Positions 5,013-46,216 of a stretch of DNA of 54,306 bases are shown piece after piece; position 1 is the first letter of the stretch, and every line of letters starts with the position of its first letter. Under the pieces are notes generated by a model. The model ran no database searches and was not told the origin of the DNA. It saw nothing but the letters and a program-made list of their open reading frames with translations. A program made the translations under genes and the position numbers. This stretch comes from Clostridia bacterium (GTDB lineage: Bacteria > Bacillota > Clostridia > Christensenellales > CAG-138): the NCBI GenBank assembly GCA_017440405.1, contig JAFSHG010000087.1:1-54306 (forward strand), read 5' to 3'.

Positions 5013-5039
5013 TTCATAAAAACGGAATTATGAAAAATA

Positions 5040-5072
5040 CCGCTTCCTTTCACATGAGGGGAAGCGGTTTTT
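5040..5072 (+). terminator. rho-independent terminator of glnA
   Basis: Hairpin CCGCTTCC(5040..5047)/GGAAGCGG(5060..5067) followed by TTTTT (5068..5072). Confidence 0.8.
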
Positions 5073-5432
5073 CATGAGCTGCGAGAGAAAATATGCGGTT
5101 TTTTAGTCAACACCGAGAGCACATACGGATATACCGTGACATGTTGCAAGGACAGCAAACGGGCAGGGCAGATATGTGCGGCAATGAAAGTGGGGTACGT
5201 TTGACTACCCTACAAAACTACACTACTCTCAAACCACTTTTCGCATTTCTAAAGAATCACGGCTGTTTGACTACCCTACAAAACTACACTACTCTCAAAC
5301 TGAACAGTAAAACGTAACCGCCACAATGCCGTTTGACTACCCTACAAAACTACACTACTCTCAAACGCATTTATCCTTGCCGCCGTGTTTGCCTGTGTTT
5401 GACTACCCTACAAAACTACACTACTCTCAAAC

Positions 5433-5645
5433 GTCAATAAAGGGATGGTTCTTTATTAAAAGAAAAGCTAACCTTGCGGCTTTCTCTTCGATTGAGGGGT
5501 AGAAGTCAACTCCGCCAAAGGATTGAAATGGGGATACAAGGCAGGAATCCAATGCGCCTTCATCTCGCACTCCGTCAAGACCACCTGTTTCTGTAATCAA
5601 CATACTGTGAAGTCTTTTGACCTGTGTTTTGCTAAGTTCTTCTAC
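5433..5645 (-). pseudogene. doc: Doc/Fic (death-on-curing) toxin gene fragment, 3'-truncated inside the HPFxDGNKR motif by a CRISPR repeat
   Basis: My translation reads ..EELSKTQVKRLHSMLITETGGLDGVRDEGALDSCLVSPFQSFGGVDFYPSIEEKAARLAFLLIKNHPFID. The next codons, GTT TGA, are repeat sequence. The remaining ORF from the ATG at 5603 is 58 aa, below the ORF-track cutoff. No canonical start codon lies upstream of the conserved N-terminus. Confidence 0.85.
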
Positions 5646-5647
5646 TA

Positions 5648-6070
5648 TTATTCCTCCAATCCTGCGAGAATCTCATATGCTTTATGATACTTCGCAAACA
5701 TTCTTTTAGATGCCCTTTCCACCTCTGCGTCTGTTGCATATCTTCTCTCGCCCTGAACGGACTCGTTGCGAATGCGTGAACTCGCCGGCTTCTTGATGAA
5801 TGATAAAACGAGTTTCCAAAAATCCTTCCAATCCATATCGTCAGTGCCACACAAAACAAAAGTGCCATCATCGCTTAACCATGTTTCAGAAGAGTGGTAT
5901 TTGCGAGCCGCTTCGGTGATTATGTAATCAACCTCTTCTTTGATGTCAGCCGTAGTCCACCAATATGTCTTTTTCATCTCTTCAAATGTTTCAAAGCCTT
6001 CCTTTTTCATAGTCTGCAAGAAGTCTTTTGCAACGATTTTTGCAAGCTCTTCTATTGTCAACTTTTTCAT
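5648..6070 (-). CDS. hypothetical protein in the antitoxin position upstream of and overlapping the doc fragment; putative orphan antitoxin
   Basis: 140-aa ORF with AAGGAG 10 nt upstream of the ATG at 6070. Its stop overlaps the doc reading frame, a typical toxin-antitoxin layout. The C-terminal tail ..ATDAEVERASKRMFAKYHKAYEILAGLEE resembles antitoxin C-termini. I recognise no family for the N-terminal ~95 aa. Confidence 0.5.
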   Translation of the reverse strand: MKKLTIEELAKIVAKDFLQTMKKEGFETFEEMKKTYWWTTADIKEEVDYIITEAARKYHSSETWLSDDGTFVLCGTDDMDWKDFWKLVLSFIKKPASSRIRNESVQGERRYATDAEVERASKRMFAKYHKAYEILAGLEE

Positions 6071-6429
6071 AAATTGAATACTCCTTTATTCTTGATAGGT
6101 TTGACTACCCTACAAAACTACACTACTCTCAAACTATTGATATCTACATGCGTATAGAGGTCGAGGTTTGACTACCCTACAAAACTACACTACTCTCAAA
6201 CTACAATCTTATAGACAACATCTGCATCAGTGTTTTACTACCCTACAAAACTACACTACTCTCAAACTAGGCTGTTGAGTGTCCGCCACTCGTCAGAGTT
6301 TTACTACCCTACAAAACTACACTACTCTCAAACTTTTCCTTGCCCTTGCAGGTCGTGGCTTCGGTTTGACTACCCTACAAAACTACACTACTCTCAAACA
6401 TTTGTCAAGAGGGGTAGCCAATATTTTTG

Positions 6430-6547
6430 GTTTGACTACCCTACAAAACTACACTACAAGTTCAAATAAAAGTAATCTCAAATCGTTCGGTTATTCCGTC
6501 CATGCACAGCGGTGCAAAGAAAATGCGTCTGTTTCAGGCGTTTTTTT
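6430..6547 (+). ncRNA. tracrRNA: tracrRNA (anti-repeat, nexus-like region, two 3' hairpins, U-tract); 5' end undetermined
   Basis: Positions 6430-6457 are identical to repeat positions 1-28. The sequence then diverges to AAGTTCAAATAAAAGTAATC.., compared with S. pyogenes ..UAGCAAGUUAAAAUAAGGCUAGUCC. The predicted lower stem pairs crRNA GUUUGA with tracr UCAAAU, separated by a bulge. Hairpins are TGCAC/GTGCA at 6503-6516 and 6526-6540, followed by T7 at 6541-6547. Confidence 0.8.
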
Positions 6548-6826
6548 GTTATATAGCCCATAGACGGACAGAATGTAATGTGATATCAAAAGCCCCCTTG
6601 TATTTTTATCGCTCGTGATACCCCCGAAAGATACGGAGCATTTTTTTGCTGCATATGCTCTCTAAGTTATATTATACTTTCCGGGGAAACAAATGTCAAT
6701 TATTGTAAAATGAAGCAGACGTCAATGTAACAGCACACTCTCTGATGTAAAAAAAACTATGTATCATGAAGGTTTTGAATATTTTTACGGTACGGCGGGC
6801 AATGAAATCTTATGACATTCATACGC

Positions 6827-6855
6827 TTGAAACCGAAAGGTGAAAGTGCTATAAT
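6827..6855 (+). promoter_or_regulatory. sigma-A promoter of the hypothetical-radA operon (TTGAAA-17-TATAAT)
   Basis: -35 TTGAAA at 6827..6832, a 17-nt spacer, and -10 TATAAT at 6850..6855, 30 nt upstream of the ATG at 6885. Confidence 0.6.
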
Positions 6856-6884
6856 TAGCGTATTCAAAGGAATCGGAGGATGTT

Positions 6885-8105
6885 ATGCCATCTGAATATT
6901 ATAACAGCCCCGGGCGTTACAAGCCGGGAAGAAAAAAACGCGGTACTTATAAGCCCAGAGGAAAGAGGGGATTGCCTGTTTTCGTGCGGGTTATTTTAGG
7001 CATTGCTGTGGTAGGACTGCTTACGCTCGGCGTTTTATTTGTTATCCCGGGAGTGGGCGGCGGCAGTTTTTCGCTCTTTCAAGCAAAGGACGACACACCT
7101 GTTGCGACACCAACGCCTGCACCCACCGCACATCCCATAGAAAACGCCAACACAGACAGCTTGATTCGTGATATCGCTATCACGGATACCAACTTCCAAT
7201 GGTTTGCGGACATGAACGTGTACGGCGATACGCTCATGTTCTGCGGTGGCGAGATTGTGGACGGCGATGCGTACATGACGGGCCTTTTCTCGGTTTCAAC
7301 GGATGAAAATGCTCCGAGGACGGCAAAGCGCACGAATATAATTTTGGAAAACGACCATATAATGTATCCGTGTTTTAACGATAACTGGCTGGTGTATCTG
7401 GACGCAAAAGCTTCAAGCGGCGGCAAGATAATGTGCAGTCCGTATTCGGGAGAATCTTCGGAGGCATTTTTAGTAAAAGAAGTGTATACGGGACATCCTG
7501 CACTGTTCCTCTCGGGGAATTTTTTGGCGTGGACGGAGCGCACGGGTACGAGCATGGATAAGTTGTATATTTACGACCTCACAACCAGGGAGAGTGCAAC
7601 TGTTCAGATGTTTAATAAAACCACATATTACGGCGTGAGTAAGCCTCACCTTTCGGGGAAACAGTTGGTATGGGCAGACGTGGACACGGAAAATTCCACG
7701 GGCAGCATGACGAGTCAGATTTGTATAATGAATACGGAATCGGGCGAGTTTTTATCATATAAGCCCGGTACATATGCACACGACCCTAAATCAAACGGTG
7801 ATAAATACATAGCTTGGATTACGGGGAATCACGGCACGGACAGTGACCTGTACATATCGTATGATATGGGCGAGGCGGAAAAAATAGCAGAGGGTGTTGT
7901 GGACTTTTATATGGATGAAAACTATCTCGCTTACCAGAAGGATGAGATGGTGTATGTTTATATTTTTTCAACAAAAGCTCAGTACAGGGTGAGCAAGAGC
8001 GGCCAGTGTGTGCAGCTCATAGGTGCATCGGGCGGATGCGTTATGTGGTCGGATGTGTCATCCAGAATGCGTGAAGTGCCTCAGTACATCGTAATACCCG
8101 AATAA
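6885..8105 (+). CDS. membrane-anchored protein with a probable beta-propeller ectodomain (hypothetical)
   Basis: 406-aa ORF with a basic N-terminus followed by a TM helix (VILGIAVVGLLTLGVLFVIPG). Motifs recur in the ectodomain: FLAWTERTG, QLVWADVD, YIAWITGNHG, YLAYQKDE. It ends 6 nt before radA. Confidence 0.6.
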   Translation: MPSEYYNSPGRYKPGRKKRGTYKPRGKRGLPVFVRVILGIAVVGLLTLGVLFVIPGVGGGSFSLFQAKDDTPVATPTPAPTAHPIENANTDSLIRDIAITDTNFQWFADMNVYGDTLMFCGGEIVDGDAYMTGLFSVSTDENAPRTAKRTNIILENDHIMYPCFNDNWLVYLDAKASSGGKIMCSPYSGESSEAFLVKEVYTGHPALFLSGNFLAWTERTGTSMDKLYIYDLTTRESATVQMFNKTTYYGVSKPHLSGKQLVWADVDTENSTGSMTSQICIMNTESGEFLSYKPGTYAHDPKSNGDKYIAWITGNHGTDSDLYISYDMGEAEKIAEGVVDFYMDENYLAYQKDEMVYVYIFSTKAQYRVSKSGQCVQLIGASGGCVMWSDVSSRMREVPQYIVIPE

Positions 8106-8111
8106 TCCGTT

Positions 8112-9482
8112 ATGGCAAAGAAGAGTTCCACAGTGTTTTTATGTTCCGAATGCGGATTTGAATCCGGCAAATGGTTGGGCTGCTGCCCTGCCTGCGGAGC
8201 ATGGAACTCACTGAGCGAATACACACCGCCAAAGGATGTACCCGCATCTGTGGCAGCATCGCTCACAGAGTCGCAAGTCATGCGGCTAAATGAAATAGAC
8301 ATCACGGAAACGGAAAGAATAAGTACGGGGGTATCTGAGTTTGACCGTGTTTTGGGCGGTGGTATAGTTCCTGCAATGGCGGTACTCATAGGCGGTGACC
8401 CGGGTATAGGAAAATCCACTTTGCTTATGAAGACGGCGTCTGAAATTACGTCTGATTTTCCGGTGCTGTACGTTTCGGGAGAAGAATCCGCCTCACAGTT
8501 GAAATTGCGTGCAATGCGCCTCGGTGCAAACAGTGATATGCTTGTTTTGGCAGAAAATTCACTTGAACGTGTAATAGCAGAGGCAGATAAGATAAAGCCC
8601 AAACTCATTATAATAGACTCTATACAAACCATGATAGCTCCCGATTCTGTGGGTGCAGCAGGGAGTATGTCGCAGATACGAGAATGCACTGCCTTGCTTT
8701 TGCGCTACACCAAATCGGCAGGAATAGCTCTTTTTATAGTAGGTCATGTGACAAAAGACGGTGCCATAGCAGGCCCCCGCACATTGGAACACATGGTAGA
8801 TACGGTGTTGTATTTTGAAGGGAACAGTCATGACTCTTTCAGACTGTTGCGTGCAGTGAAAAATCGCTTTGGCTCTACCAACGAAATAGGCGTGTTTGAA
8901 ATGACGGATACGGGGTTAGAGCCCGTAACGGACACTGCCGCCATCTTTCTCTCGGAACAGACAAACTCAGGCTGTGCCGTCACCGCAGTGCTGGAAGGTA
9001 CAAGACCCATGCTTGCAGAGGTTCAATCGCTGCTGTCGGCATGTCCTTTTGGAAATCCCCGTCGCATGTCCACAGGTTTTGACAACCACAGATTGCAACT
9101 TCTGCTTGCAGTTCTGCAACAGCATACACCGCTGCGACTGCATGATAAGGATGTGTACATAAACACCGTTGGCGGAATCAGAATGGACGATCGTTCAAAC
9201 GACCTTGCAATATGCATGGCAATAGCCTCAGCTTACTGCAATCGTCCCATGCAAAGGCATACCGCAGTTTTGGGTGAGGTGGGACTTACAGGCGAATTGC
9301 GTGCCGTAAGCAGAATAGCGGTCCGACTGAATGAATGTATGAGGTTGGGGTTTAAGAGGGTGATTATTCCAAAGATGAATTCTGCCAAGATAAGCGATTT
9401 GCCCAAGGATGCAGAGGTGATATGTGTGTCCACCGTGAGAGAGGCACTTGCAAAAGAGGATTTGCTGCACGGGAGAGAGTGA
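8112..9482 (+). CDS. radA: DNA repair protein RadA/Sms
   Basis: 456 aa with an N-terminal zinc ribbon CSECGFESGKWLGCCPACGAWN, Walker A GGDPGIGKST, the KNRFG motif, and a Lon-protease-like C-terminal domain. Confidence 0.95.
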   Translation: MAKKSSTVFLCSECGFESGKWLGCCPACGAWNSLSEYTPPKDVPASVAASLTESQVMRLNEIDITETERISTGVSEFDRVLGGGIVPAMAVLIGGDPGIGKSTLLMKTASEITSDFPVLYVSGEESASQLKLRAMRLGANSDMLVLAENSLERVIAEADKIKPKLIIIDSIQTMIAPDSVGAAGSMSQIRECTALLLRYTKSAGIALFIVGHVTKDGAIAGPRTLEHMVDTVLYFEGNSHDSFRLLRAVKNRFGSTNEIGVFEMTDTGLEPVTDTAAIFLSEQTNSGCAVTAVLEGTRPMLAEVQSLLSACPFGNPRRMSTGFDNHRLQLLLAVLQQHTPLRLHDKDVYINTVGGIRMDDRSNDLAICMAIASAYCNRPMQRHTAVLGEVGLTGELRAVSRIAVRLNECMRLGFKRVIIPKMNSAKISDLPKDAEVICVSTVREALAKEDLLHGRE

Positions 9483-9575
9483 CACATCTTGCACAATGGC
9501 TGTGTTATAGTGGGCGAAAATAATCTTAAAACCCGTTGAAAAATAACGAATATTTTTATAGAAACGAAAATGAAA

Positions 9576-9633: not shown

Positions 9634-11154
9634 TCAATAGTCTTTGAGTCGTCCGCAAACGGTACATTTTTTCAGCAGCCAGCCCTTTAATTCACCGCCG
9701 CAATTCGGACATGCATCACATGCAAACAGACTGTCACGGAATGCGTATGTTCGGCATTCTATTTCGGGTGTGAGGTTATACACATCTTTCAGTGCGAAAC
9801 AGTCACGGAAAGCGTTTTCGCCTATCACTTTCAGTTTTGCGGGCAAGTCTAACGATTCAAGACCGCAGCCGCTGAATACATCATTTTCTATTACTTCAAG
9901 TTCGGCGGGCAGATGTATTTTTTTCATGCCGGTGCAATTTACGAATGCGCCTTCGCGTATATTCTTTAAGTGGTCGGGTAAAACCACGTTATCAAGCGAC
10001 TTACAGCCATAAAATGCCCTCGTATCTATGAGTTCCAAACTCTGTGGGAAAACTACCTTTTTCAGCGAGTCGCAGCCTGTGAATGCTCCCGTACCTATCT
10101 CGCACAAGCCCTCGGGGAGTACGATGTCTTCCAAGGAGACGCAATCTGAAAAGCTCTTCCAGCCGAGTTTTCTTACGGTGGGAGGTAAAGTGATGTGTAC
10201 GAGCTTTTTACAACTGCTGAACACGCTTGCGCCGAGTTCGCTCATTGTTGACGGCAAAATTACACGTTCCAAAGAAACGCAATCGTGCAAAACTCCGTTT
10301 TTCATTTCCACAAGTGAGTCCGGGAAAGTTATCTCACGCAAGCTGCTGCAAGCTGCAAAGGCACTGTCGCCAATGCTCAGGAGTCCCTCGGGCAATTTCA
10401 CGGCAGAAAGGGCACGACAACCCCAGAATGCATTTGCGTGGATGGTTTTCAAGTGCTCGGGCATATGAACCTGAGTGAGCGATGTGCAGCTCTTAAATGC
10501 CGAGCGGCTTATGCGCTCCAAACCGTCGGGAAGATAGACCGAGTGCAGTGAAAGGCAGCCCATGAAAGCTTCTTCATCTATGTCGGTGATGCCGAGAGGT
10601 ATTTCTATCTCACGAAGTGAAGCACAGTTTTCGAATGTGCCGTAGCCTATTTCACGGAGGTTATCCGGCATATTGATTTTTTGAAGCTGTGTACATCCCG
10701 AAAAAGCGTGCTTACCTATTTCGTCCAACTCCTGAGGTATATCCACCTGTACAAGTGATGTGCACGATGCGAAAGAATATTCACCTATTACATGAAGGGA
10801 ATGCGGCACATGTACCGAGCGCAGAGATCTGCAATTCTTGAAAGCAGCGTTATCTATGACCACAAGACCCTCGTGAAATTCAATGGTTTCAATCGAGCGA
10901 CAGTCAATAAATGCACTGAGCCCTATTTCCAAAAGGCTTTGCGGCAAATTCACATCTTTGAGCGATGTGCAGGAACAGAAGGCTTGCTTGCAAATTTTAG
11001 TGACGCCCTCCGGGATTGTAACTTTTCGTAACATGGTACAGTGATAGAAAGCCGCAGGACCTATCTCACGCACTCCATCCGGTATTGCTATTTCTTTATC
11101 CATTCCGCGGTATCTCACTAAAACACCGTCACGAATTTCCATATTTTGATTCAT
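9634..11154 (-). CDS. BspA-type leucine-rich repeat (LRR_5) protein with a C-terminal zinc ribbon and no signal peptide
   Basis: 506 aa made of about 20 tandem ~23-aa units of the form IPEGVTxIGxxAFxxCxSLxxV. The C-terminus is CDACPNCGGELKGWLLKKCTVCG. GGAGG lies 7 nt upstream of the ATG. Confidence 0.85.
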   Translation of the reverse strand: MNQNMEIRDGVLVRYRGMDKEIAIPDGVREIGPAAFYHCTMLRKVTIPEGVTKICKQAFCSCTSLKDVNLPQSLLEIGLSAFIDCRSIETIEFHEGLVVIDNAAFKNCRSLRSVHVPHSLHVIGEYSFASCTSLVQVDIPQELDEIGKHAFSGCTQLQKINMPDNLREIGYGTFENCASLREIEIPLGITDIDEEAFMGCLSLHSVYLPDGLERISRSAFKSCTSLTQVHMPEHLKTIHANAFWGCRALSAVKLPEGLLSIGDSAFAACSSLREITFPDSLVEMKNGVLHDCVSLERVILPSTMSELGASVFSSCKKLVHITLPPTVRKLGWKSFSDCVSLEDIVLPEGLCEIGTGAFTGCDSLKKVVFPQSLELIDTRAFYGCKSLDNVVLPDHLKNIREGAFVNCTGMKKIHLPAELEVIENDVFSGCGLESLDLPAKLKVIGENAFRDCFALKDVYNLTPEIECRTYAFRDSLFACDACPNCGGELKGWLLKKCTVCGRLKDY

Positions 11155-14300: not shown

Positions 14301-15779
14301 TTATTGCAAAAACAGTCTTTCTTTCTCGTCGTACACTGTATGGAGTTTGGACATGTATGTACCCACATCCTTGGGGTTTGGTATGCGCTCTACTCTGAGT
14401 GACCTGCCCGGGAAAACCCGCTTTGACATGGACCCTGCACCGTGTGCCATTATGCTCACGGTTTCTTCCATCATGTCGATGTTATACAGACACTCTGTAC
14501 CGGGCAGCGCATAACCTATGTTTTCCAGATTCCCACGCATGTATTTTTGCCTATACATGTAGTATGCATTCATGCCCTGCTTCTTTGCACTTTTCATACC
14601 TGCATCTACCATGAGCGACGCAATCTCTGTATCGGGCATTATGCTTGCTATTTCAGCGTCACCTATGACTTGTTTCAGTTTTGATGACCGTTTAAGTGCG
14701 AGTGTGTGAACCGTCATATTTTCGGGACGCATTTTTTCTATGCATTCCAAGGTGTACAACACATCTTGAATATCCTCACCGGGCAGACAGGTTATGATAT
14801 CGGTGTTTATGATAAATCCCATATCTCTTGCATTGTAAAACGCATCTTCAATTTCCGAAGGCGTATGGCTTCTGCCTATGAGCTTTAAAGTTTTTTCGTT
14901 CATACTCTGCGGGTTTACGGATATTCTGCCCACGCCGTGAGCTTTTAGAATTTCAAGCTTCTTACGTGTTATGGTATCGGGCCTGCCCGCTTCCGCGGTG
15001 AACTCATTTCCCATTGTGCCATAGCATTCGAGTGCAAAATCCAATACTTCCTCCAGCTCATCTTCTGTGAGAACCGTGGGCGTACCTCCGCCCATGTATG
15101 CTGCACGGATATTAAATTTACCGTCTTGCAACAGTCTTGCGCCAAGGCGTATATCCTCTTTCAGTGCGTTTATATATGGCCGCATATCCGTCTTTGCCGT
15201 GCGTATTTCAGATGCAAACGAGCAGTACAGGCAGCGTGTTTTGCAATAGGGTATGCCTATATAAATATCTACATCATTTTCTTCCACAGAGCGTATGAAA
15301 GGTCTCTGTGTATCCGCTGTTTCCTTTGCCACGGCGTATTTTTCGGGCTCTGTGTCAAAGAGGGAAAGCATCATATCTTTTGCAGAGTCAGTCCCCATGT
15401 CGTCTTCCAGTTCTCGCAGGAGTTTTGTGGGGCGAATCCCCGTGAGCGATCCCCACGGTACAAATGCGTTCGGGAATGCTTTTTTCATCATTCTGAATGC
15501 TGCAATTTTTATACAACGCTTTTTATGTCGCTTCACGGTGAGCGCATCGCCTTCAAAATACGGGTATTCAAATGTGTATTCGGAACAAAAATCGCCATCC
15601 GACGTAACACGGGCACACCAGTTATAATCGGTCTGAACAAGGCTTGTACATATCACGGTATCACATGCACCGTCATCTTCCGTGATTATGTGGGCATCAC
15701 TTAAAAACAGACGTATTTCATCTGAAATGTCGTTTGCAAATTCGGGAGTATCGGTTTTCAGCAGTATGGTATTACTCAT
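14301..15779 (-). CDS. hemZ: HemN-family radical SAM protein (coproporphyrinogen dehydrogenase HemZ-like)
   Basis: Radical SAM motif GIPYCKTRCLYCSF. The start was moved to the ATG at 15779 (MSNTILLKTD), which overlaps the upstream gene's stop by 8 nt (ATGAGTAA). The 56-codon extension in the ORF track overlaps the MBL gene. Confidence 0.8.
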   Translation of the reverse strand: MSNTILLKTDTPEFANDISDEIRLFLSDAHIITEDDGACDTVICTSLVQTDYNWCARVTSDGDFCSEYTFEYPYFEGDALTVKRHKKRCIKIAAFRMMKKAFPNAFVPWGSLTGIRPTKLLRELEDDMGTDSAKDMMLSLFDTEPEKYAVAKETADTQRPFIRSVEENDVDIYIGIPYCKTRCLYCSFASEIRTAKTDMRPYINALKEDIRLGARLLQDGKFNIRAAYMGGGTPTVLTEDELEEVLDFALECYGTMGNEFTAEAGRPDTITRKKLEILKAHGVGRISVNPQSMNEKTLKLIGRSHTPSEIEDAFYNARDMGFIINTDIITCLPGEDIQDVLYTLECIEKMRPENMTVHTLALKRSSKLKQVIGDAEIASIMPDTEIASLMVDAGMKSAKKQGMNAYYMYRQKYMRGNLENIGYALPGTECLYNIDMMEETVSIMAHGAGSMSKRVFPGRSLRVERIPNPKDVGTYMSKLHTVYDEKERLFLQ

Positions 15780-16413
15780 AGTCCATGTGGTTTGTGACCG
15801 GGTTGTTCCGGCGTTCAAATTCAAGCTCGGTACGTTCGCCGTGACCGGGAAGAACTGTATAATTGCCGTGGAGTGCGTACAGTTTATATAAAATGGAGAA
15901 TGATAGGTCCTCACGGTTTGAACGGTACAAGTCCGTGCGACCCACACTCAAACGGAATAGGGTATCTCCCGAAAAAATAACTTTTTCACTCTCTATGATG
16001 TAGCACACGCTGCCCGAGGAATGCCCCGGTGTATGCATAACGCAGATATCTATTCCGCACAGGTTCAAATTTTCGCCGTCAGACAGAAGTCTGTCCGCTT
16101 CACACTTTCTTGTGGTGGTACCTACAAATGCGGCAAGGTTTATCTTATCGCTCGTGAGGGCGTCTTTATCAGCGTCGTGTATCAGAACCTTTGCACCCAT
16201 GACTCGTTTTAAGTGTTCAACTCCGAGCAGGTGGTCAAAATGCCCGTGGGTGAGGAGTATATATTTGCAGTTCAGCCCCTCTTTATTCAAATAATCCTCC
16301 ACAAGCACACCGTCTGCAGGGTCTATAACCACACATTCGCTTGAAGGTTCGCTGTGCAACACATATGTATTTACGCTGAGCGGACCTGTTTCCAACACTG
16401 CTATTTTCAGCAT
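15772..16413 (-). CDS. MBL-fold metallo-hydrolase
   Basis: 213 aa with the zinc motif LLTHGHFDH and downstream TPGHSSGS and LPGHG. Confidence 0.85.
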   Translation of the reverse strand: MLKIAVLETGPLSVNTYVLHSEPSSECVVIDPADGVLVEDYLNKEGLNCKYILLTHGHFDHLLGVEHLKRVMGAKVLIHDADKDALTSDKINLAAFVGTTTRKCEADRLLSDGENLNLCGIDICVMHTPGHSSGSVCYIIESEKVIFSGDTLFRLSVGRTDLYRSNREDLSFSILYKLYALHGNYTVLPGHGERTELEFERRNNPVTNHMDYE

Positions 16414-16511
16414 TTATCTAAAAAATCCTTTCCGTATTACATGGCGATTTGAAAATCATCCGTGATTGTAATTGTACAACAAAACCATAAGTTTTTCAAC
16501 CAAAGCCATAC

Positions 16512-16542
16512 AAAAAAGAGGAAATCCATACAAGATGTCCTC
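16512..16542 (-). terminator. terminator after jag
   Basis: Minus-strand hairpin GAGGACATC/GATTTCCTC (one mismatch) followed by a T-run (forward A-run at 16512..16517). Confidence 0.55.
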
Positions 16543-16561
16543 CGATACAAAACTTTTACTT

Positions 16562-17500
16562 TCAATACTCCCTGCTATGCCTACGCGGTCTGCGAGAATG
16601 TGTGGAAGTGATTATTACATAGCGATGCGGTTCTGTTCCTTCGCTGTGAGTGGTTACATGCGAATTTCCTTGCAATGTGGAATGGATTATGCGTCTTTCA
16701 TACGGACTCATGGGTTCAAACTTATACGGTTTGCCGCTTGCTCGCACGGTGGATGCCTTGGACTTTGCAAGGCGCACCAACACTTCTTCTCTCTTTTCTC
16801 GATAGCCTTGCGTATCAATAGAAACACGGGTGTATTCATTGTGGCTACGGTCACGGTTTGCAACCAGGAGCGTTAGATATTGGAGTGCATCCAATGTTTC
16901 GCCTCTGTGTCCTATGAGTACGCCTGCTGCCTCCGTATCTATGCGCAGTTTCAGAGAATCCTCCGTTTCCGCTGCCAAAACCTTTGCCTCAACACCCATC
17001 TTCACCAAAAGGTCTGAAAGAAACTGAGCGGCAGGAATATTTGCAGCAGCTTCTTCCGTGTACACTGTGGGAGCTGCTTCTGCTTCTGTTTCTGTTTCCA
17101 TATTAGAGTTATGCACAGCATCTGCAATGCTTTCCTCCTCAAAACCGTTTGAAAGTTCAGCCTGCACAGATGACTTTTCTGCTTTTACAGGCTCTGTGCG
17201 TATGCGTTCGGGTCTTTCTTTTTCAATTTTGTGCTGACGGGGGGCGTTTTCACGTTGCTTATGATTTTCGCCTTTTCGCTCCTCTTTGGACTCAAACATG
17301 CTCTTTATATCCAACATGTCATCGTGTGATTTCTCAGTGAGTCTTACTATGGCGGGTTTTGCACCTATACCAAGGAGTCCGAGAGAACCCCTCTGTATAA
17401 TTTCAATATTTACCTCGTCCACGGAAAGTCCCATTTCCTGTACACCGTTCCAAATTGCCTCATCAACTGTCTTTCCGCTTTTTTCTATCTGCTTTCCCAT
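16562..17500 (-). CDS. jag: Jag/KhpB (EloR) RNA-binding protein with KH and R3H domains
   Basis: 312 aa with an N-terminal Jag_N-like segment, an acidic/basic linker, and a C-terminal R3H region (PMSPYERRIIHSTL). It lies immediately downstream of yidC. Confidence 0.85.
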   Translation of the reverse strand: MGKQIEKSGKTVDEAIWNGVQEMGLSVDEVNIEIIQRGSLGLLGIGAKPAIVRLTEKSHDDMLDIKSMFESKEERKGENHKQRENAPRQHKIEKERPERIRTEPVKAEKSSVQAELSNGFEEESIADAVHNSNMETETEAEAAPTVYTEEAAANIPAAQFLSDLLVKMGVEAKVLAAETEDSLKLRIDTEAAGVLIGHRGETLDALQYLTLLVANRDRSHNEYTRVSIDTQGYREKREEVLVRLAKSKASTVRASGKPYKFEPMSPYERRIIHSTLQGNSHVTTHSEGTEPHRYVIITSTHSRRPRRHSREY

Positions 17501-40636: not shown

Positions 40637-41902
40637 TTAGCCTATTATATTCTTTACTGCATTCAACACATCATCTGCACGGAATGAAGTTTCACTTCCC
40701 AGCATCATGTCTTTGAGCTTGTATTCGCCCGATTCCAATTCACTTTCGCCTATGACTATTACAGCCTTTGCACTTATCTTATCCGCATACTTGAATTGAG
40801 CCTTAAAGCTTCTGCCCACATGGTCAAACTCTGCATATATACCGTTGTTGCGCAGGGTGTATGCGAGTTTCATAGCCTCAGTCTGTGCTGCATCGCCCAT
40901 GGAAGCAATGTACACATCGGGCATTTTCTGTTCGGGAAGATGTATCCCCATATTTTCAAGCATGATGATGAGCCTTTCTATACCCATTCCGAATCCCACG
41001 GCGGGCATGGAACTTCCGCCCACTTCTTCCACCAGATTATCGTAACGGCCTCCGCCGCAAACTGCACTCTGTGCGCCCAAACTCTCCGATACCACTTCAA
41101 AAACTGTTTTGGTGTAATAATCCAGCCCTCGTACTATCATGGGATTTACGGTGTAAGGTATACTGAGTACGTCCAAACAGCTTTTTAAATTTTCAAAGTG
41201 CGATTTACAGTCATCGCACAGACAGTCTATGGTCTTGGGGGCGTTTTTGCAGATTTCCTTGCATTTTGCTTCTTTGCAGTCCAGTATGCGCAAGGGGTTC
41301 TGCTCATAACGTGTGCGGCATGTTTCGCAAAGGTTGTCCAGATTGTCGTGCAGATATTCACGGAGTGCGGCACTGTATGCGGGGCGACATTCGGGGCAGC
41401 CTATGCTGTTTATATTTGCACGAAGCCCTTTTACGCCCAATTCCTGCATCAGTTCAAACACAAGTGCTATACATTCTGCATCTGCCGCTGCATTCTTTGC
41501 GCCGAACATTTCCACGCCGAACTGGTGATGTTCACGAAGTCTGCCTGCCTGCGGTCTTTCATAGCGAAAGAGGGGTACATTCAGGTAGTACATTTTTACG
41601 GGCAGAGCGCCGTCTGCCATGCGGTGTTCCACAAAGGCCCTCGCAACACCTGCCGTACCCTCGGGACGCAGTGTTACGCTTCTGTCGCCTTTATCCGTAA
41701 ATGTGTACATTTCCTTTTGTACTATATCTGTGGTGTTGCCAACACCGCGCAAGAAAAGTTCCGTGTGTTCCAAAACGGGTGTGCGTATCTCGCAAAAACC
41801 GTGTTTTGCACATAATGCACGCATTATCCTTTCTACATACTGCCATTTTGCACTTTCATTCGGAAGTACATCTTTCATTCCCTTCAAAGCTTGAAGAGCC
41901 AT
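40637..41902 (-). CDS. hisS: histidine--tRNA ligase
   Basis: 421 aa with motifs LRPEGTAGVAR, FRYERPQAGRLREHHQFGVE and GGGRYD. Confidence 0.95.
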   Translation of the reverse strand: MALQALKGMKDVLPNESAKWQYVERIMRALCAKHGFCEIRTPVLEHTELFLRGVGNTTDIVQKEMYTFTDKGDRSVTLRPEGTAGVARAFVEHRMADGALPVKMYYLNVPLFRYERPQAGRLREHHQFGVEMFGAKNAAADAECIALVFELMQELGVKGLRANINSIGCPECRPAYSAALREYLHDNLDNLCETCRTRYEQNPLRILDCKEAKCKEICKNAPKTIDCLCDDCKSHFENLKSCLDVLSIPYTVNPMIVRGLDYYTKTVFEVVSESLGAQSAVCGGGRYDNLVEEVGGSSMPAVGFGMGIERLIIMLENMGIHLPEQKMPDVYIASMGDAAQTEAMKLAYTLRNNGIYAEFDHVGRSFKAQFKYADKISAKAVIVIGESELESGEYKLKDMMLGSETSFRADDVLNAVKNIIG

Positions 41903-41936: not shown

Positions 41937-42215
41937 AAAAAAGCAGCAAACCCAAAAGACAGAAACTGCCTGTACGGGACGACAAATAAAAACTTGCCGT
42001 GGTGCCACCCAAATTAGACACAGAATAAGTGTCTCACTCATATCCGTAACGGGGATTTACCGTCCGAGCCTACTCTTTTTATATTTCAGCACGGCTGCTC
42101 TGCGGTGTCATTCGCAAAAAATCCTTTGCAAGACAGGCTTTCAGCCACGACCTGTCATCTCTTTTGCAGGAATTTTCACTACTTTTCCGCTTCATCGCAT
42201 TTTACAAAATATCAC
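41937..42215 (-). promoter_or_regulatory. T-box riboswitch leader of hisS-aspS
   Basis: The conserved T-box sequence AATTTGGGTGGCACCACGG is on the minus strand (forward 41993..42015). An AGAGA K-turn-like element lies near the 5' end. The candidate specifier context is GAAUGACACC (forward 42105..42109). A T-run (forward A-run at 41937..41942) precedes the hisS RBS. Confidence 0.8.
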
Positions 42216-45037: not shown

Positions 45038-46216
45038 ATGTCAGACTACGAAAAACACTCTGTAAGAGGCGTGCGCTTTGAAAGCGGAAAGCCGAGCTAT
45101 GGAAGAAAAAACGGAAATAAAGACCGTGACAGACACGGCTACGGCGAAAAAGGTGATTATAAAAAACGTGAGTATTCGGGTAAAGACGGTTATAAGAAGC
45201 CCTATGGCGATAAGGACGGTTATAAAAAGCGTGAGTATTCCGATAAAGACGGTTATAAGAAACCATACGGCGGCAAGGACGGTTATAAGAAGCCTTACGG
45301 CGATAAAGGCGGATATAAAAAGCCATACGATGACAGAGACGAACGCTTTGGAGATTATAAAGAAAGTCGCAAGCACAAAAAATATGATGAAGAATCCGTA
45401 CGCAGAAACAGTTTTGATGAAAAAAGAAGCGCAGAAGCGGAACATGCTGTGAGAGAGGATGAACTGCCTTTCCTCATCATGGGCAGAAATGCAGTGCGTG
45501 AGGCCATAAAGAGCGGCAGGAGCATAGATAAGATTTTGGTTATCCCCGAGCGTGACGGTTCATTGGGAGAAATCTTGGGTATGGCACGGGACAGAAATAT
45601 TCTCATTCAGGAAGAAAAGCGTGAGAAGCTGGACGAGCTTTGTATGCCTTTCGGTCACGGCGAAAAGACGGGCAATCATCAGGGCATAGTGGCAAGAGTG
45701 CCGGGTGCAGAATATGTGAGTTTGGAGGATATTTTAGACTACGCAAAGGAACGCAATGAAGCTCCGTTCATACTGCTTTTGGACGGCATCACAGACCCGT
45801 ATAACTTTGGCTCTATGATAAGAAGTGCAGAATGTGCAGGCATTCACGGAATAGTGATACCAAAGCGCAGGAGTGCTACGCTCACATCTTCTGCCGTAAA
45901 GGTGTCGGCAGGTGCTGCAAGCCATATGCGCATTGCAAAAGTGCCTAATATAGCGAATGCAATAGACAGGTTACATGAGAACAATGTTTGGGTAGCAGGT
46001 GCAGACATGGAGGGTAAGTCCATGTATGAAACCGACATGAAGGGTGCAATGGCAATAGTTATAGGCAGTGAGGATGAGGGACTTTCCGCACTGGTTCGCA
46101 AAAAGTGCGATTACATCATATCCGCTCCCATAAAGGGTAATATAGATTCTTTGAATGCTGCCGTGGCATCGGCTGTGCTCATGTATGAGAAAGTGAGACA
46201 GGATACACAATCATGA
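45038..46216 (+). CDS. rlmB: 23S rRNA (guanosine-2'-O)-methyltransferase RlmB (SpoU/TrmH family) with a repetitive basic N-terminal extension
   Basis: The C-terminal 250 aa carry the SpoU substrate-binding and methylase motifs: GRNAVREAI, DGITDPYNFGSMIRSAECAG, VIGSEDEGLS, IPIKGNIDSLNAAVA. Confidence 0.85.
   Translation: MSDYEKHSVRGVRFESGKPSYGRKNGNKDRDRHGYGEKGDYKKREYSGKDGYKKPYGDKDGYKKREYSDKDGYKKPYGGKDGYKKPYGDKGGYKKPYDDRDERFGDYKESRKHKKYDEESVRRNSFDEKRSAEAEHAVREDELPFLIMGRNAVREAIKSGRSIDKILVIPERDGSLGEILGMARDRNILIQEEKREKLDELCMPFGHGEKTGNHQGIVARVPGAEYVSLEDILDYAKERNEAPFILLLDGITDPYNFGSMIRSAECAGIHGIVIPKRRSATLTSSAVKVSAGAASHMRIAKVPNIANAIDRLHENNVWVAGADMEGKSMYETDMKGAMAIVIGSEDEGLSALVRKKCDYIISAPIKGNIDSLNAAVASAVLMYEKVRQDTQS
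45149..45334 (+). repeat. in-frame tandem repeat encoding six K(D/G)GYKK(P/RE)Y units
   Basis: Protein residues 38-99 read KGDYKKREYSGKDGYKKPYGDKDGYKKREYSDKDGYKKPYGGKDGYKKPYGDKGGYKKPYDD. The underlying unit is ~30-33 nt, with a 63-nt higher-order period. Confidence 0.85.

Follow-up and report, generated by a model that had tools for sequence, protein, structure and literature searches.

An orphan type II-A CRISPR array in register with a tracrRNA gene between glnA and radA of a Clostridia bacterium: a probable remnant of cas operon excision

Between glnA and the radA operon of a Clostridia bacterium (assembly GCA_017440405.1, contig JAFSHG010000087.1) lies an island that holds an array of CRISPR (short palindromic repeats, clustered and regularly interspaced), the gene of a tracrRNA (trans-activating CRISPR RNA) and no cas gene. 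The window analyzed here, 54,306 nucleotides, is one entire contig of a metagenome-assembled genome (MAG) with locus tags beginning IJO93_, and statements made at the level of the contig cover these 54 kb. The island very probably remains from a type II-A CRISPR-Cas locus of the chromosome, whose cas genes were excised by recombination between the anti-repeat of the tracrRNA gene and a repeat of the array.

Array, tracrRNA gene and missing cas genes

The array contains nine complete 36-bp repeats, which read GTTTGAGAGTAGTGTAGTTTTGTAGGGTAGTCAAAC in the sense of the CRISPR RNA (crRNA), and eight ordinary spacers of 30–31 nt, no two of them alike (Table 1). The 23-nt core of the repeat occurs in ten copies on the + strand (starts 5204 to 6435), where shuffled sequences lead to an expectation of 0. 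A single-nucleotide polymorphism is shared by R7 and R8, with GTTTTAC in place of GTTTGAC. Nine near-identical repeats with unique 30–31-bp spacers had been described in the original prediction, together with a terminator of glnA and a promoter at 6827 as the borders of the island. The description is borne out, and the promoter and terminator scan places the glnA terminator at 5039–5068 and the promoter, which belongs to orf406, at 6827–6855. The picture of an uninterrupted array has to be corrected, since a 666-bp insert between R4 and R5, overlooked at that time, splits the array in two. The leader-side end of the array adjoins the anti-repeat of the tracrRNA gene, and the first repeat has no promoter-bearing leader beside it. 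Downstream of the array, read in the crRNA sense, a weak hairpin with a T-rich tail (minus strand, 5210→5193) is the sole terminator-like site. Promoters within the repeats, as in type II-C, were considered and rejected; the hexamers that can be read by eye are weak on both strands, as in TTGACT-17-TACTCT of the + strand, and none was reported by the scan.

The 23-nt core has no match in the GTDB representative genomes. The two-copy pattern of the repeat has none in IMG/VR, so that the repeat is on no viral contig there. The eight ordinary spacers gave no meaningful protospacer among the INPHARED phages and PLSDB plasmids, and the 22 nt proximal to the protospacer-adjacent motif (PAM), taken from four spacers, gave no match in IMG/VR. 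Because protospacers were not found, the PAM cannot be derived.

Table 1. Features of the island, in coordinates of the window
Feature	Position	Strand	Remarks
Trailer	5073..5198	-	Leader-distal flank of the array, from the glnA terminator (5039-5068) to R1
Array block A	5199..5432	-	R1-R4, starts 5199, 5265, 5331, 5397
Spacers S1-S3 of block A	5235-5264, 5301-5330, 5367-5396	-
Insert, fragment of a doc toxin-antitoxin operon	5433..6098	-	In the spacer slot between R5 and R4
doc' pseudogene	5433..5648	-	N-terminal 72 codons of a Fic/Doc toxin; start ATG changed to ATA
ORF140 (MBQ9950021.1), 140 aa	5648..6070	-	Upstream gene of the doc operon; intact; AAGGAG ribosome-binding site; own promoter lost
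Array block B	6099..6399	-	R5-R9, starts 6099, 6166, 6232, 6298, 6364
Spacers S5-S8 of block B	6135-6165, 6202-6231, 6268-6297, 6334-6363	-
Spacer S9	6400..6429	-	Final array unit before the deletion junction; takes the place of the tracrRNA promoter in L104
tracrRNA gene without promoter	6430..6548	+	Homologs lie upstream of cas9 in L004, L007, L020 and L104
Hybrid anti-repeat, the deletion junction	6430..6457	+	Matches the array repeat at 28/28 positions; GTTTGAC end of the array type
Flank between tracrRNA terminator and orf406 promoter	6549..6826		Ancestral; collinear with L104
Sigma-70 promoter TTGACA-17-TATAAT	6671..6699	-	12/12; faces the antisense of the tracrRNA gene, the array and ORF140; conserved in L104

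The type of the array was deduced from its relatives. The repeat has GTTTGAGAGTAGTGTAG as its 5′ half on the minus strand of the window, and a scan of a metagenome collection for this sequence in two spaced copies returned 20 arrays. In the loci L004, L007, L016 and L020, the array lies downstream of, and in the same orientation as, an open reading frame (ORF) of 1378–1391 aa. L004, with a repeat that differs from that of the window by 2 nt, encodes Cas9 (TIGR01865, 845 bits) as well as type II Cas1, Cas2 and Csn2. Because the arrays of the L004 type are linked to cas9 and co-oriented with it, the island can be assigned to type II-A, with the crRNA on the minus strand of the window. The tracrRNA of L004, L007 and L020 is located directly upstream of cas9 and is divergently transcribed.

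Two features of the intergenic region in this clade are recorded here. In L004 (~6173–6215), in L007 and in L104 (3172–3202), a contig described below, the start codon of cas9 touches the -35 box of the promoter that serves the divergent tracrRNA gene, with CAT followed directly by GTTGACA. The only promoter candidates in the direction of cas9 lie beyond the tracrRNA terminator, and the 5′ untranslated region of cas9 would hence be antisense to the entire tracrRNA gene.

Cas9 of L004 and L020 was compared with the six frames of the 54 kb by tblastn, and no match exceeded 24 bits or had an E value below 2. Cas1, Cas2 and Csn2 of the same two loci gave a best E value of 0.15. The longest ORF of the window, 864 aa, encodes an SNF2 helicase, and none has the size of Cas9. 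The earlier statement that the 54 kb contain no Cas9, Cas1, Cas2 or Csn2 is confirmed by these searches. The locus has the array, with 36-bp repeats and ~30-bp spacers, and the tracrRNA, with a perfect anti-repeat of 28 nt; it lacks Cas9, the adaptation module of Cas1, Cas2 and Csn2, and a leader with promoter. It is best filed as an orphan relic and not as a functional type II-A system.

In the tenth copy of the repeat (6430–6457), 28 nt agree with the repeat before the sequence departs into AAGTTCAAATAA. This copy is the anti-repeat, and it is followed by an AAGU bulge, the UCAAAU strand of the lower stem, a nexus-like hairpin (CGG...CCG), the hairpin UGCAC-AGCG-GUGCA, and a terminator (6525–6541) that leads into a U-tract. 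In the computed fold, GUUUGA of the crRNA and UCAAAU of the tracrRNA are predicted to pair as a lower stem of 6 bp, above which come a GA/AAGU bulge and a long upper stem. The Rfam model of the tracrRNA (RF02348) spans the full length at 6431–6547 on the + strand with 21.5 bits, against a gathering threshold of 70, and E = 1.7. Since this score alone is weak, the identity of the tracrRNA rests on homology with tracrRNAs linked to cas9. The tracrRNAs of the window, L004, L007 and L020 share AAGUUCAAAUAA, UCAAAUCGUUCGG...CCGU and the UGCAC...GUGCA hairpin, and their terminator stems vary in sequence with the pairing kept. The anti-repeats of L004, L007 and L020 are imperfect, whereas that of the window is perfect. 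The tracrRNA call is sound, and the scaffold is intact in its predicted structure.

The consensus scan found no + strand promoter upstream of the tracrRNA gene of the window at 6430. At the matching place, L104 has the + strand promoter TTGACA-17-TAGCAT with an extended -10 element. The gene had previously been called apparently intact; this stands for the scaffold, the lower stem, the hairpins and the U-tract, but the promoter is gone. Similarly, the view that the RNA components are not decayed holds for the repeats and the tracrRNA scaffold, while the tracrRNA promoter, the leader and the adaptation module fell to the deletion discussed below. As a separate observation, the nexus-like hairpin of L104 (3250–3300) is tandemly duplicated with a unit of 17 nt, CGTTCGGTAGTTCCGTT and then CGTTCGGTAATCCCGTT, whereas the window and L004 have a single copy.

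The sister locus and the junction in the anti-repeat

L104 is a Logan contig that carries the second member of the protein cluster of orf406. It is ~92% identical to the window from 6429 through orf406 and radA and for roughly 8.5 kb further; the alignment of window 6429–9486 with L104 3212–6283 has 91.6% identity. On the other side of this flank, L104 bears cas9 on the minus strand, which encodes at least 1057 aa before running off the end of the contig and is 49% identical, over all of its visible part, to Cas9 of L004 (E = 0). The order in L104 is cas9(-), tracrRNA promoter, anti-repeat and tracrRNA(+), the flank in common with the window, and orf406-radA. Comparison of the glnA-radA interval among relatives, proposed along with the original prediction, thus finds cas9 precisely at the position of the island.

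In the base-by-base alignment, the window and L104 become collinear at 6429/6430, where the anti-repeat has its first base. Leftward of 6430, S9 and R9 of the window stand opposite the tracrRNA promoter and cas9 of L104. The end of the anti-repeat is the array-type GTTTGAC in the window versus GGTTTAC in L104, where the anti-repeat shares ~26 consecutive nt with the repeat. The hybrid anti-repeat of the window stands exactly one spacer (30 nt) away from R9. These findings support a loss of the cas operon, and the location of the junction inside the anti-repeat would show the mechanism of the loss.

In the proposed mechanism, the ancestral order on the + strand would have been glnA, trailer, array(-), leader, csn2-cas2-cas1-cas9(-), tracrRNA promoter, tracrRNA(+), flank and orf406-radA. 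The part from cas9 rightward is seen in L104, and the part with cas1, cas2, csn2 and the leader is supplied from more distant relatives. Because the tracrRNA is on the strand opposite to the crRNAs and cas9, its anti-repeat reads, as DNA, in the same direction as each CRISPR repeat and forms a direct repeat with it. Together with the array, it would then bracket the entire cas operon. Homologous recombination or replication slippage between the anti-repeat, through its ~26 nt of identity, and an internal repeat would excise the four cas genes (cas9, cas1, cas2 and csn2) together with the leader, the spacers near it and the tracrRNA promoter. The excised segment would amount to ~6 kb, as estimated from the gene sizes of L004, plus any leader-proximal repeat-spacer units, and the product would be a hybrid anti-repeat in register with the array. 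Such recombination predicts a junction in the anti-repeat, a perfect copy of the repeat, a distance of one spacer, and the loss of the leader and the tracrRNA promoter, all of which are seen. The deletion certainly took the tracrRNA promoter, and most likely cas9, the adaptation genes and the leader as well.

Alternatively, the fusion of the tracrRNA gene with the array may be ancestral, the tracrRNA having been born from the terminal repeat, and the lineage of L104 would have gained cas9 by insertion. tracrRNAs are thought to derive from repeats, and the tracrRNA of the window is in register with the array. However, the tracrRNA is directly upstream of cas9 in all of L004, L007, L020 and L104. 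An insertion would also need to recreate the abutment of the tracrRNA -35 box and the cas9 start that is present in L004, L007 and L104, and the scaffolds are homologous across loci with Cas9s that are only ~40–50% identical. Gain of cas9 by the L104 lineage is therefore regarded as extremely improbable.

It is also conceivable that an assembler jumped from the anti-repeat to a repeat through the 28-nt identity, and that the cas operon is still in place. The junction sequence is repeated ten times locally, and the data come wholly from short-read metagenome assemblies. Nevertheless, the junction of the window recurs in two contigs from different samples; L001 and L002 have the junction and the spacers as in the window, and a single position in 1872 nt is mismatched. 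In the fourth assembly, L105, the junction is a different one, again at the anti-repeat. There, the tracrRNA scaffold and anti-repeat are fused straight to the insert with ORF140, that is, at R5, and S9 through R5 are absent; here another repeat was joined, and more than one event of this kind is indicated. The contig names of L002 and L105 carry k = 141, a length that the 28 nt do not approach, and, judging from how such assemblers work, an identity so short would not be expected to mislead them. Chimeric reads would also need to span unique 30-nt spacers and the unique scaffold. Because four assemblies have their junction at the anti-repeat, a mis-assembly is very unlikely.

Besides the proposed excision between anti-repeat and repeat, the arrays show smaller changes. 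A further assembly, L106, has S9, a repeat, a spacer not present in the window, a repeat, and then the insert. Its comparison with the window shows that ordinary losses between repeats have occurred too. The original prediction had offered three possibilities: use of the locus by a Cas9 in trans, very recent loss of the cas operon, or retention of the two RNAs for another role. Of these, the loss is supported by cas9 of L104 at this very place and by the junction in the anti-repeat. The recency is not established, because the orphan state is found in at least three assemblies and the junction allele of L105 is ~2% different in the non-coding flank.

Several points weigh against the excision as reconstructed here. 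The glnA side of an intact locus, with cas1-cas2-csn2, the leader and the array, was not recovered, as L104 ends inside cas9, and the contigs of the members of the GlnA and SNF2 clusters come from other organisms or end within glnA. The position and orientation of the array in the intact lineage are those assumed from the L004-type loci. L104, ~8% diverged, represents a sister lineage and not the direct ancestor. The recombination is deduced from its scar, in which RecA-dependent exchange and replication slippage are indistinguishable. The evidence covers one MAG contig, and a second cas locus elsewhere in the genome is possible. Transcription of the minus strand and silence of the tracrRNA gene, both discussed below, are predictions from the consensus scan. 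A search with GlnA among the GTDB representative genomes gave a best match of 78% identity, and none of 80 GlnA loci in these representatives keeps the synteny with SNF2, orf406 and radA or has a comparable CRISPR next to glnA.

The doc operon fragment, the remaining promoter and neighboring genes

The insert that splits the array is 96% identical to positions 545–1210 of the contig L103, and the homology stops at both repeat edges, with possible microhomology of 3 nt and 1 nt. L103 carries a member of the ORF140 protein cluster in a non-CRISPR context. Its operon consists of a promoter (TTGACA-17-TATAAT) whose end lies 4 nt ahead of the insert start, ORF140, and doc, which overlaps ORF140 by 1 nt. 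The Doc protein of L103 continues with HPFIDGNKR... and matches the Doc-like toxin PHROG 577 (2.5e-30) and Pfam Fic (9e-19). The doc′ of the window breaks off in the Fic motif, behind HPFID and exactly at R4, and the intact HxFx(D/E)GNKR motif is missing; a 58-aa ORF at 5427–5603 still matches Pfam Fic with E = 7.7e-8.

ORF140 is a putative antitoxin by its position. It has no family match in Pfam, NCBIfam or PHROG, its relatives form one 90% protein cluster among 5.8 billion proteins, and its AlphaFold model from the single sequence has a pLDDT (predicted local distance difference test) of 57. ORF140 of the window and that of L103 differ by 8 synonymous and 8 non-synonymous codons. This corresponds to a rough ratio of non-synonymous to synonymous rates (dN/dS) of ~0.3 with both lineages mixed, and the differences are compatible with some constraint on the protein without being decisive.

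The same insert, with an identical junction on the R5 side, is present in L001, L002, L105 and L106. Because it is common to all five array-bearing assemblies, it is older than their divergence, and probably older than the deletions. A connection between the array and the donor element is suggested by S9, which shares the exact 15-mer CTACCCCTCTTGACA with L103:503–517; these positions belong to the doc promoter region, and the insert starts ~25 nt downstream of them. CTACCCCTCTTGACA is unique in the window, where 0.07 matches are expected at up to 2 mismatches, and the overall identity of S9 with L103 is ~21/30. This suggests that the array may once have targeted relatives of the insert's donor element. 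No motif is consistent among the three flanks considered as PAM candidates in L103 (CTAACCG, GAAAAAG and GGCAACA).

The insert could have entered the array before the deletion by either of two routes. In the first, two neighboring spacers of the array would have come from the element, and a double crossover with the element would have taken place at them. In the second, an over-long prespacer would have been integrated. The two routes are not separable, because the protospacers, and hence the PAM, are lacking.

A weak promoter-like site, TTGTCA-16-AATACT, is located inside the insert just upstream of R5 (window 6055–6082, + strand). In L105 the site stands ~16 nt upstream of the hybrid anti-repeat and could in principle drive the tracrRNA there.

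The perfect sigma-70 promoter of the minus strand lies beyond the tracrRNA terminator (Table 1), and L020 has an analogous promoter in the direction of cas9 beyond its own tracrRNA terminator. Since the promoter is conserved in L104 and points at cas9 there, it is probably the former promoter of the cas operon. The array and ORF140 may still be transcribed from it as one unit, because it lies upstream of both and no terminator is predicted before the site at 5210→5193. The tracrRNA gene, as judged from the scan, probably lacks a promoter. With the adaptation module missing and no effector encoded locally, adaptation would not be possible, and the relic is probably inert for immunity unless a compatible Cas9 is encoded elsewhere in the genome.

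Such a functional orphan, in which a Cas9 from elsewhere uses the array and the tracrRNA in trans in the manner of CRISPR2 of Enterococcus faecalis, is quite unlikely. The repeats are homogeneous, the tracrRNA scaffold is structurally intact, and the perfect promoter faces the array in the crRNA sense. There is a precedent of an orphan type II-A array that needs cas9 and tracrRNA in trans (PMC4894674). Furthermore, the Cas9s of L004 and L104 are ~49% identical and have closely similar modules of repeat and tracrRNA, so that a fairly distant Cas9 might fit. However, the deletion removed the tracrRNA promoter, the leader and the adaptation genes are absent, the spacer content is unchanged across three assemblies, and nothing resembling a Cas protein is found within the 54 kb. 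The nearest full-length relative of the cognate Cas9 among the 5.8 billion proteins, including those of NCBI MAGs, is 57% identical, and Cas9 in trans is disfavored because no closer Cas9 is on record.

A different role can be considered for the remnant. Under selection, the former cas promoter may drive ORF140 as an anti-addiction module against mobile elements that carry Doc, with the array and the tracrRNA gene as passengers. ORF140 is intact in 5/5 copies embedded in arrays. Its partner doc, by contrast, is truncated, and the start codon of doc is missing in the window. Having lost its own promoter, ORF140 sits downstream of the perfect promoter with no predicted terminator between, its codon differences from L103 give the low ratio stated above, and S9 suggests a past conflict with the same element. 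Yet the antitoxin role of ORF140 is deduced from gene order, with no family match and a poor structure model, the ratio mixes both lineages, and the expression is a prediction. An anti-addiction function is thus an unlikely proposal, although it is compatible with, and not exclusive of, the origin by excision between anti-repeat and repeat.

Some observations concern the neighboring genes and other parts of the window. orf406 (6885–8105, + strand), the first gene of the radA operon, has no match in Pfam or NCBIfam and belongs to a 90% cluster of two members; the run VFVRVILGIAVVGLLTLGVLFVI at its N-terminus resembles a membrane anchor by eye. Just downstream of radA, a minus-strand gene (9634–11154) encodes 506 aa that consist nearly entirely of BspA-type leucine-rich repeats (PF13306, E = 4e-131). 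In the whole window, the only Rfam match at the gathering threshold is a T-box leader (RF00230, 135 bits) at 41972–42204 of the minus strand, upstream of the minus-strand ORF 40637–41902. Tandem repeats with periods of 30, 33 and 63 nt and the consensus TAAAGACGGTTATAAGAAGCCATACGGCGA occupy 45157–45329; because they lie inside the + strand ORF 45038–46216, the protein of this ORF is repetitive. In L109, from an unrelated organism with a GlnA of at least 90% identity, a gene for a 734-aa TIR-ankyrin protein and a helix-turn-helix gene (14364–16568) are found ~6.6 kb downstream of glnA. This region may be a defence island.

Comparison with known systems and implications

The island has much in common with canonical type II-A systems of the Streptococcus pyogenes type. 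The 36-bp repeat starts with GTTTGAGAG, the duplex has the 6-bp lower stem, the GA/AAGU bulge and the upper stem, the tracrRNA has hairpins and a terminator, and the close relative L004 encodes Cas9, Cas1, Cas2 and Csn2. In the canonical order, the tracrRNA is upstream of cas9 on the opposite strand and is followed by cas9-cas1-cas2-csn2, the leader and the array. The window, in contrast, is without the four cas genes, the leader and the tracrRNA promoter. Its tracrRNA gene is fused in register to the array, and its anti-repeat is a perfect copy of the repeat.

CRISPR2 of E. faecalis, an orphan type II-A array, defends only when cas9 and tracrRNA of CRISPR1 are supplied (PMC4894674). Both loci are type II-A arrays that have no adjacent cas genes and persist in their lineage. 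Unlike CRISPR2, the window retains a tracrRNA scaffold beside the array, its origin is visible from the scar and the cas9-positive sister locus, and no partner cas locus is known.

Collapse of arrays through recombination between repeats is well documented (PMC12477760). The event proposed here would also be a homology-driven deletion between direct repeats, and the comparison of L106 with the window shows that blocks of repeats and spacers were lost as well. It differs from array contraction in that one partner is the tracrRNA anti-repeat outside the array, and in that the whole cas operon was lost and not spacers only. No description of the removal of a cas operon by recombination of anti-repeat and repeat was found in the full-text literature searched, which is no proof of novelty.

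The insert resembles Phd/Doc modules in being derived from a two-gene operon, in which the first stop codon overlaps the second start codon and the second gene encodes a Fic/Doc toxin. It is unlike these modules in that only the upstream gene is intact, doc is cut in the Fic motif, and ORF140 belongs to no known antitoxin family.

The locus is a known kind of orphan relic and not a new kind of system, and its scar is unusually informative; the gene-sized insert in a spacer slot is itself unusual. There remains a slim chance of something of wider scope, in one of two forms. The pair of anti-repeat and array may recurrently excise cas operons, and orphan type II arrays would then arise generally along a path that has so far gone undescribed. 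Otherwise, the insert may be a spacer of gene size, set in place by the adaptation machinery or through recombination guided by spacers; an antitoxin would thereby have been captured that is now expressed from the former cas promoter as an anti-addiction device.

Orphan arrays are common, and their origin is rarely visible; in the present case, the junction survives, cas9 is kept in a sister locus at the same chromosomal site, and L105 has a second junction allele. Taken together, these suggest that type II-A loci are structurally vulnerable. Because direct repeats flank cas9-cas1-cas2-csn2, one recombination can strip the effector together with the adaptation module and leave the array and the tracrRNA gene. 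The fragment of gene size in a spacer slot bears on how foreign DNA other than spacers enters arrays. If excision through the anti-repeat is general, a tracrRNA scaffold in register with an array would be its signature in genome annotation. It would help to explain the patchy distribution of Cas9 and a rapid loss of immunity, and would bear on the escape from self-targeting or from Cas9-based antimicrobials.

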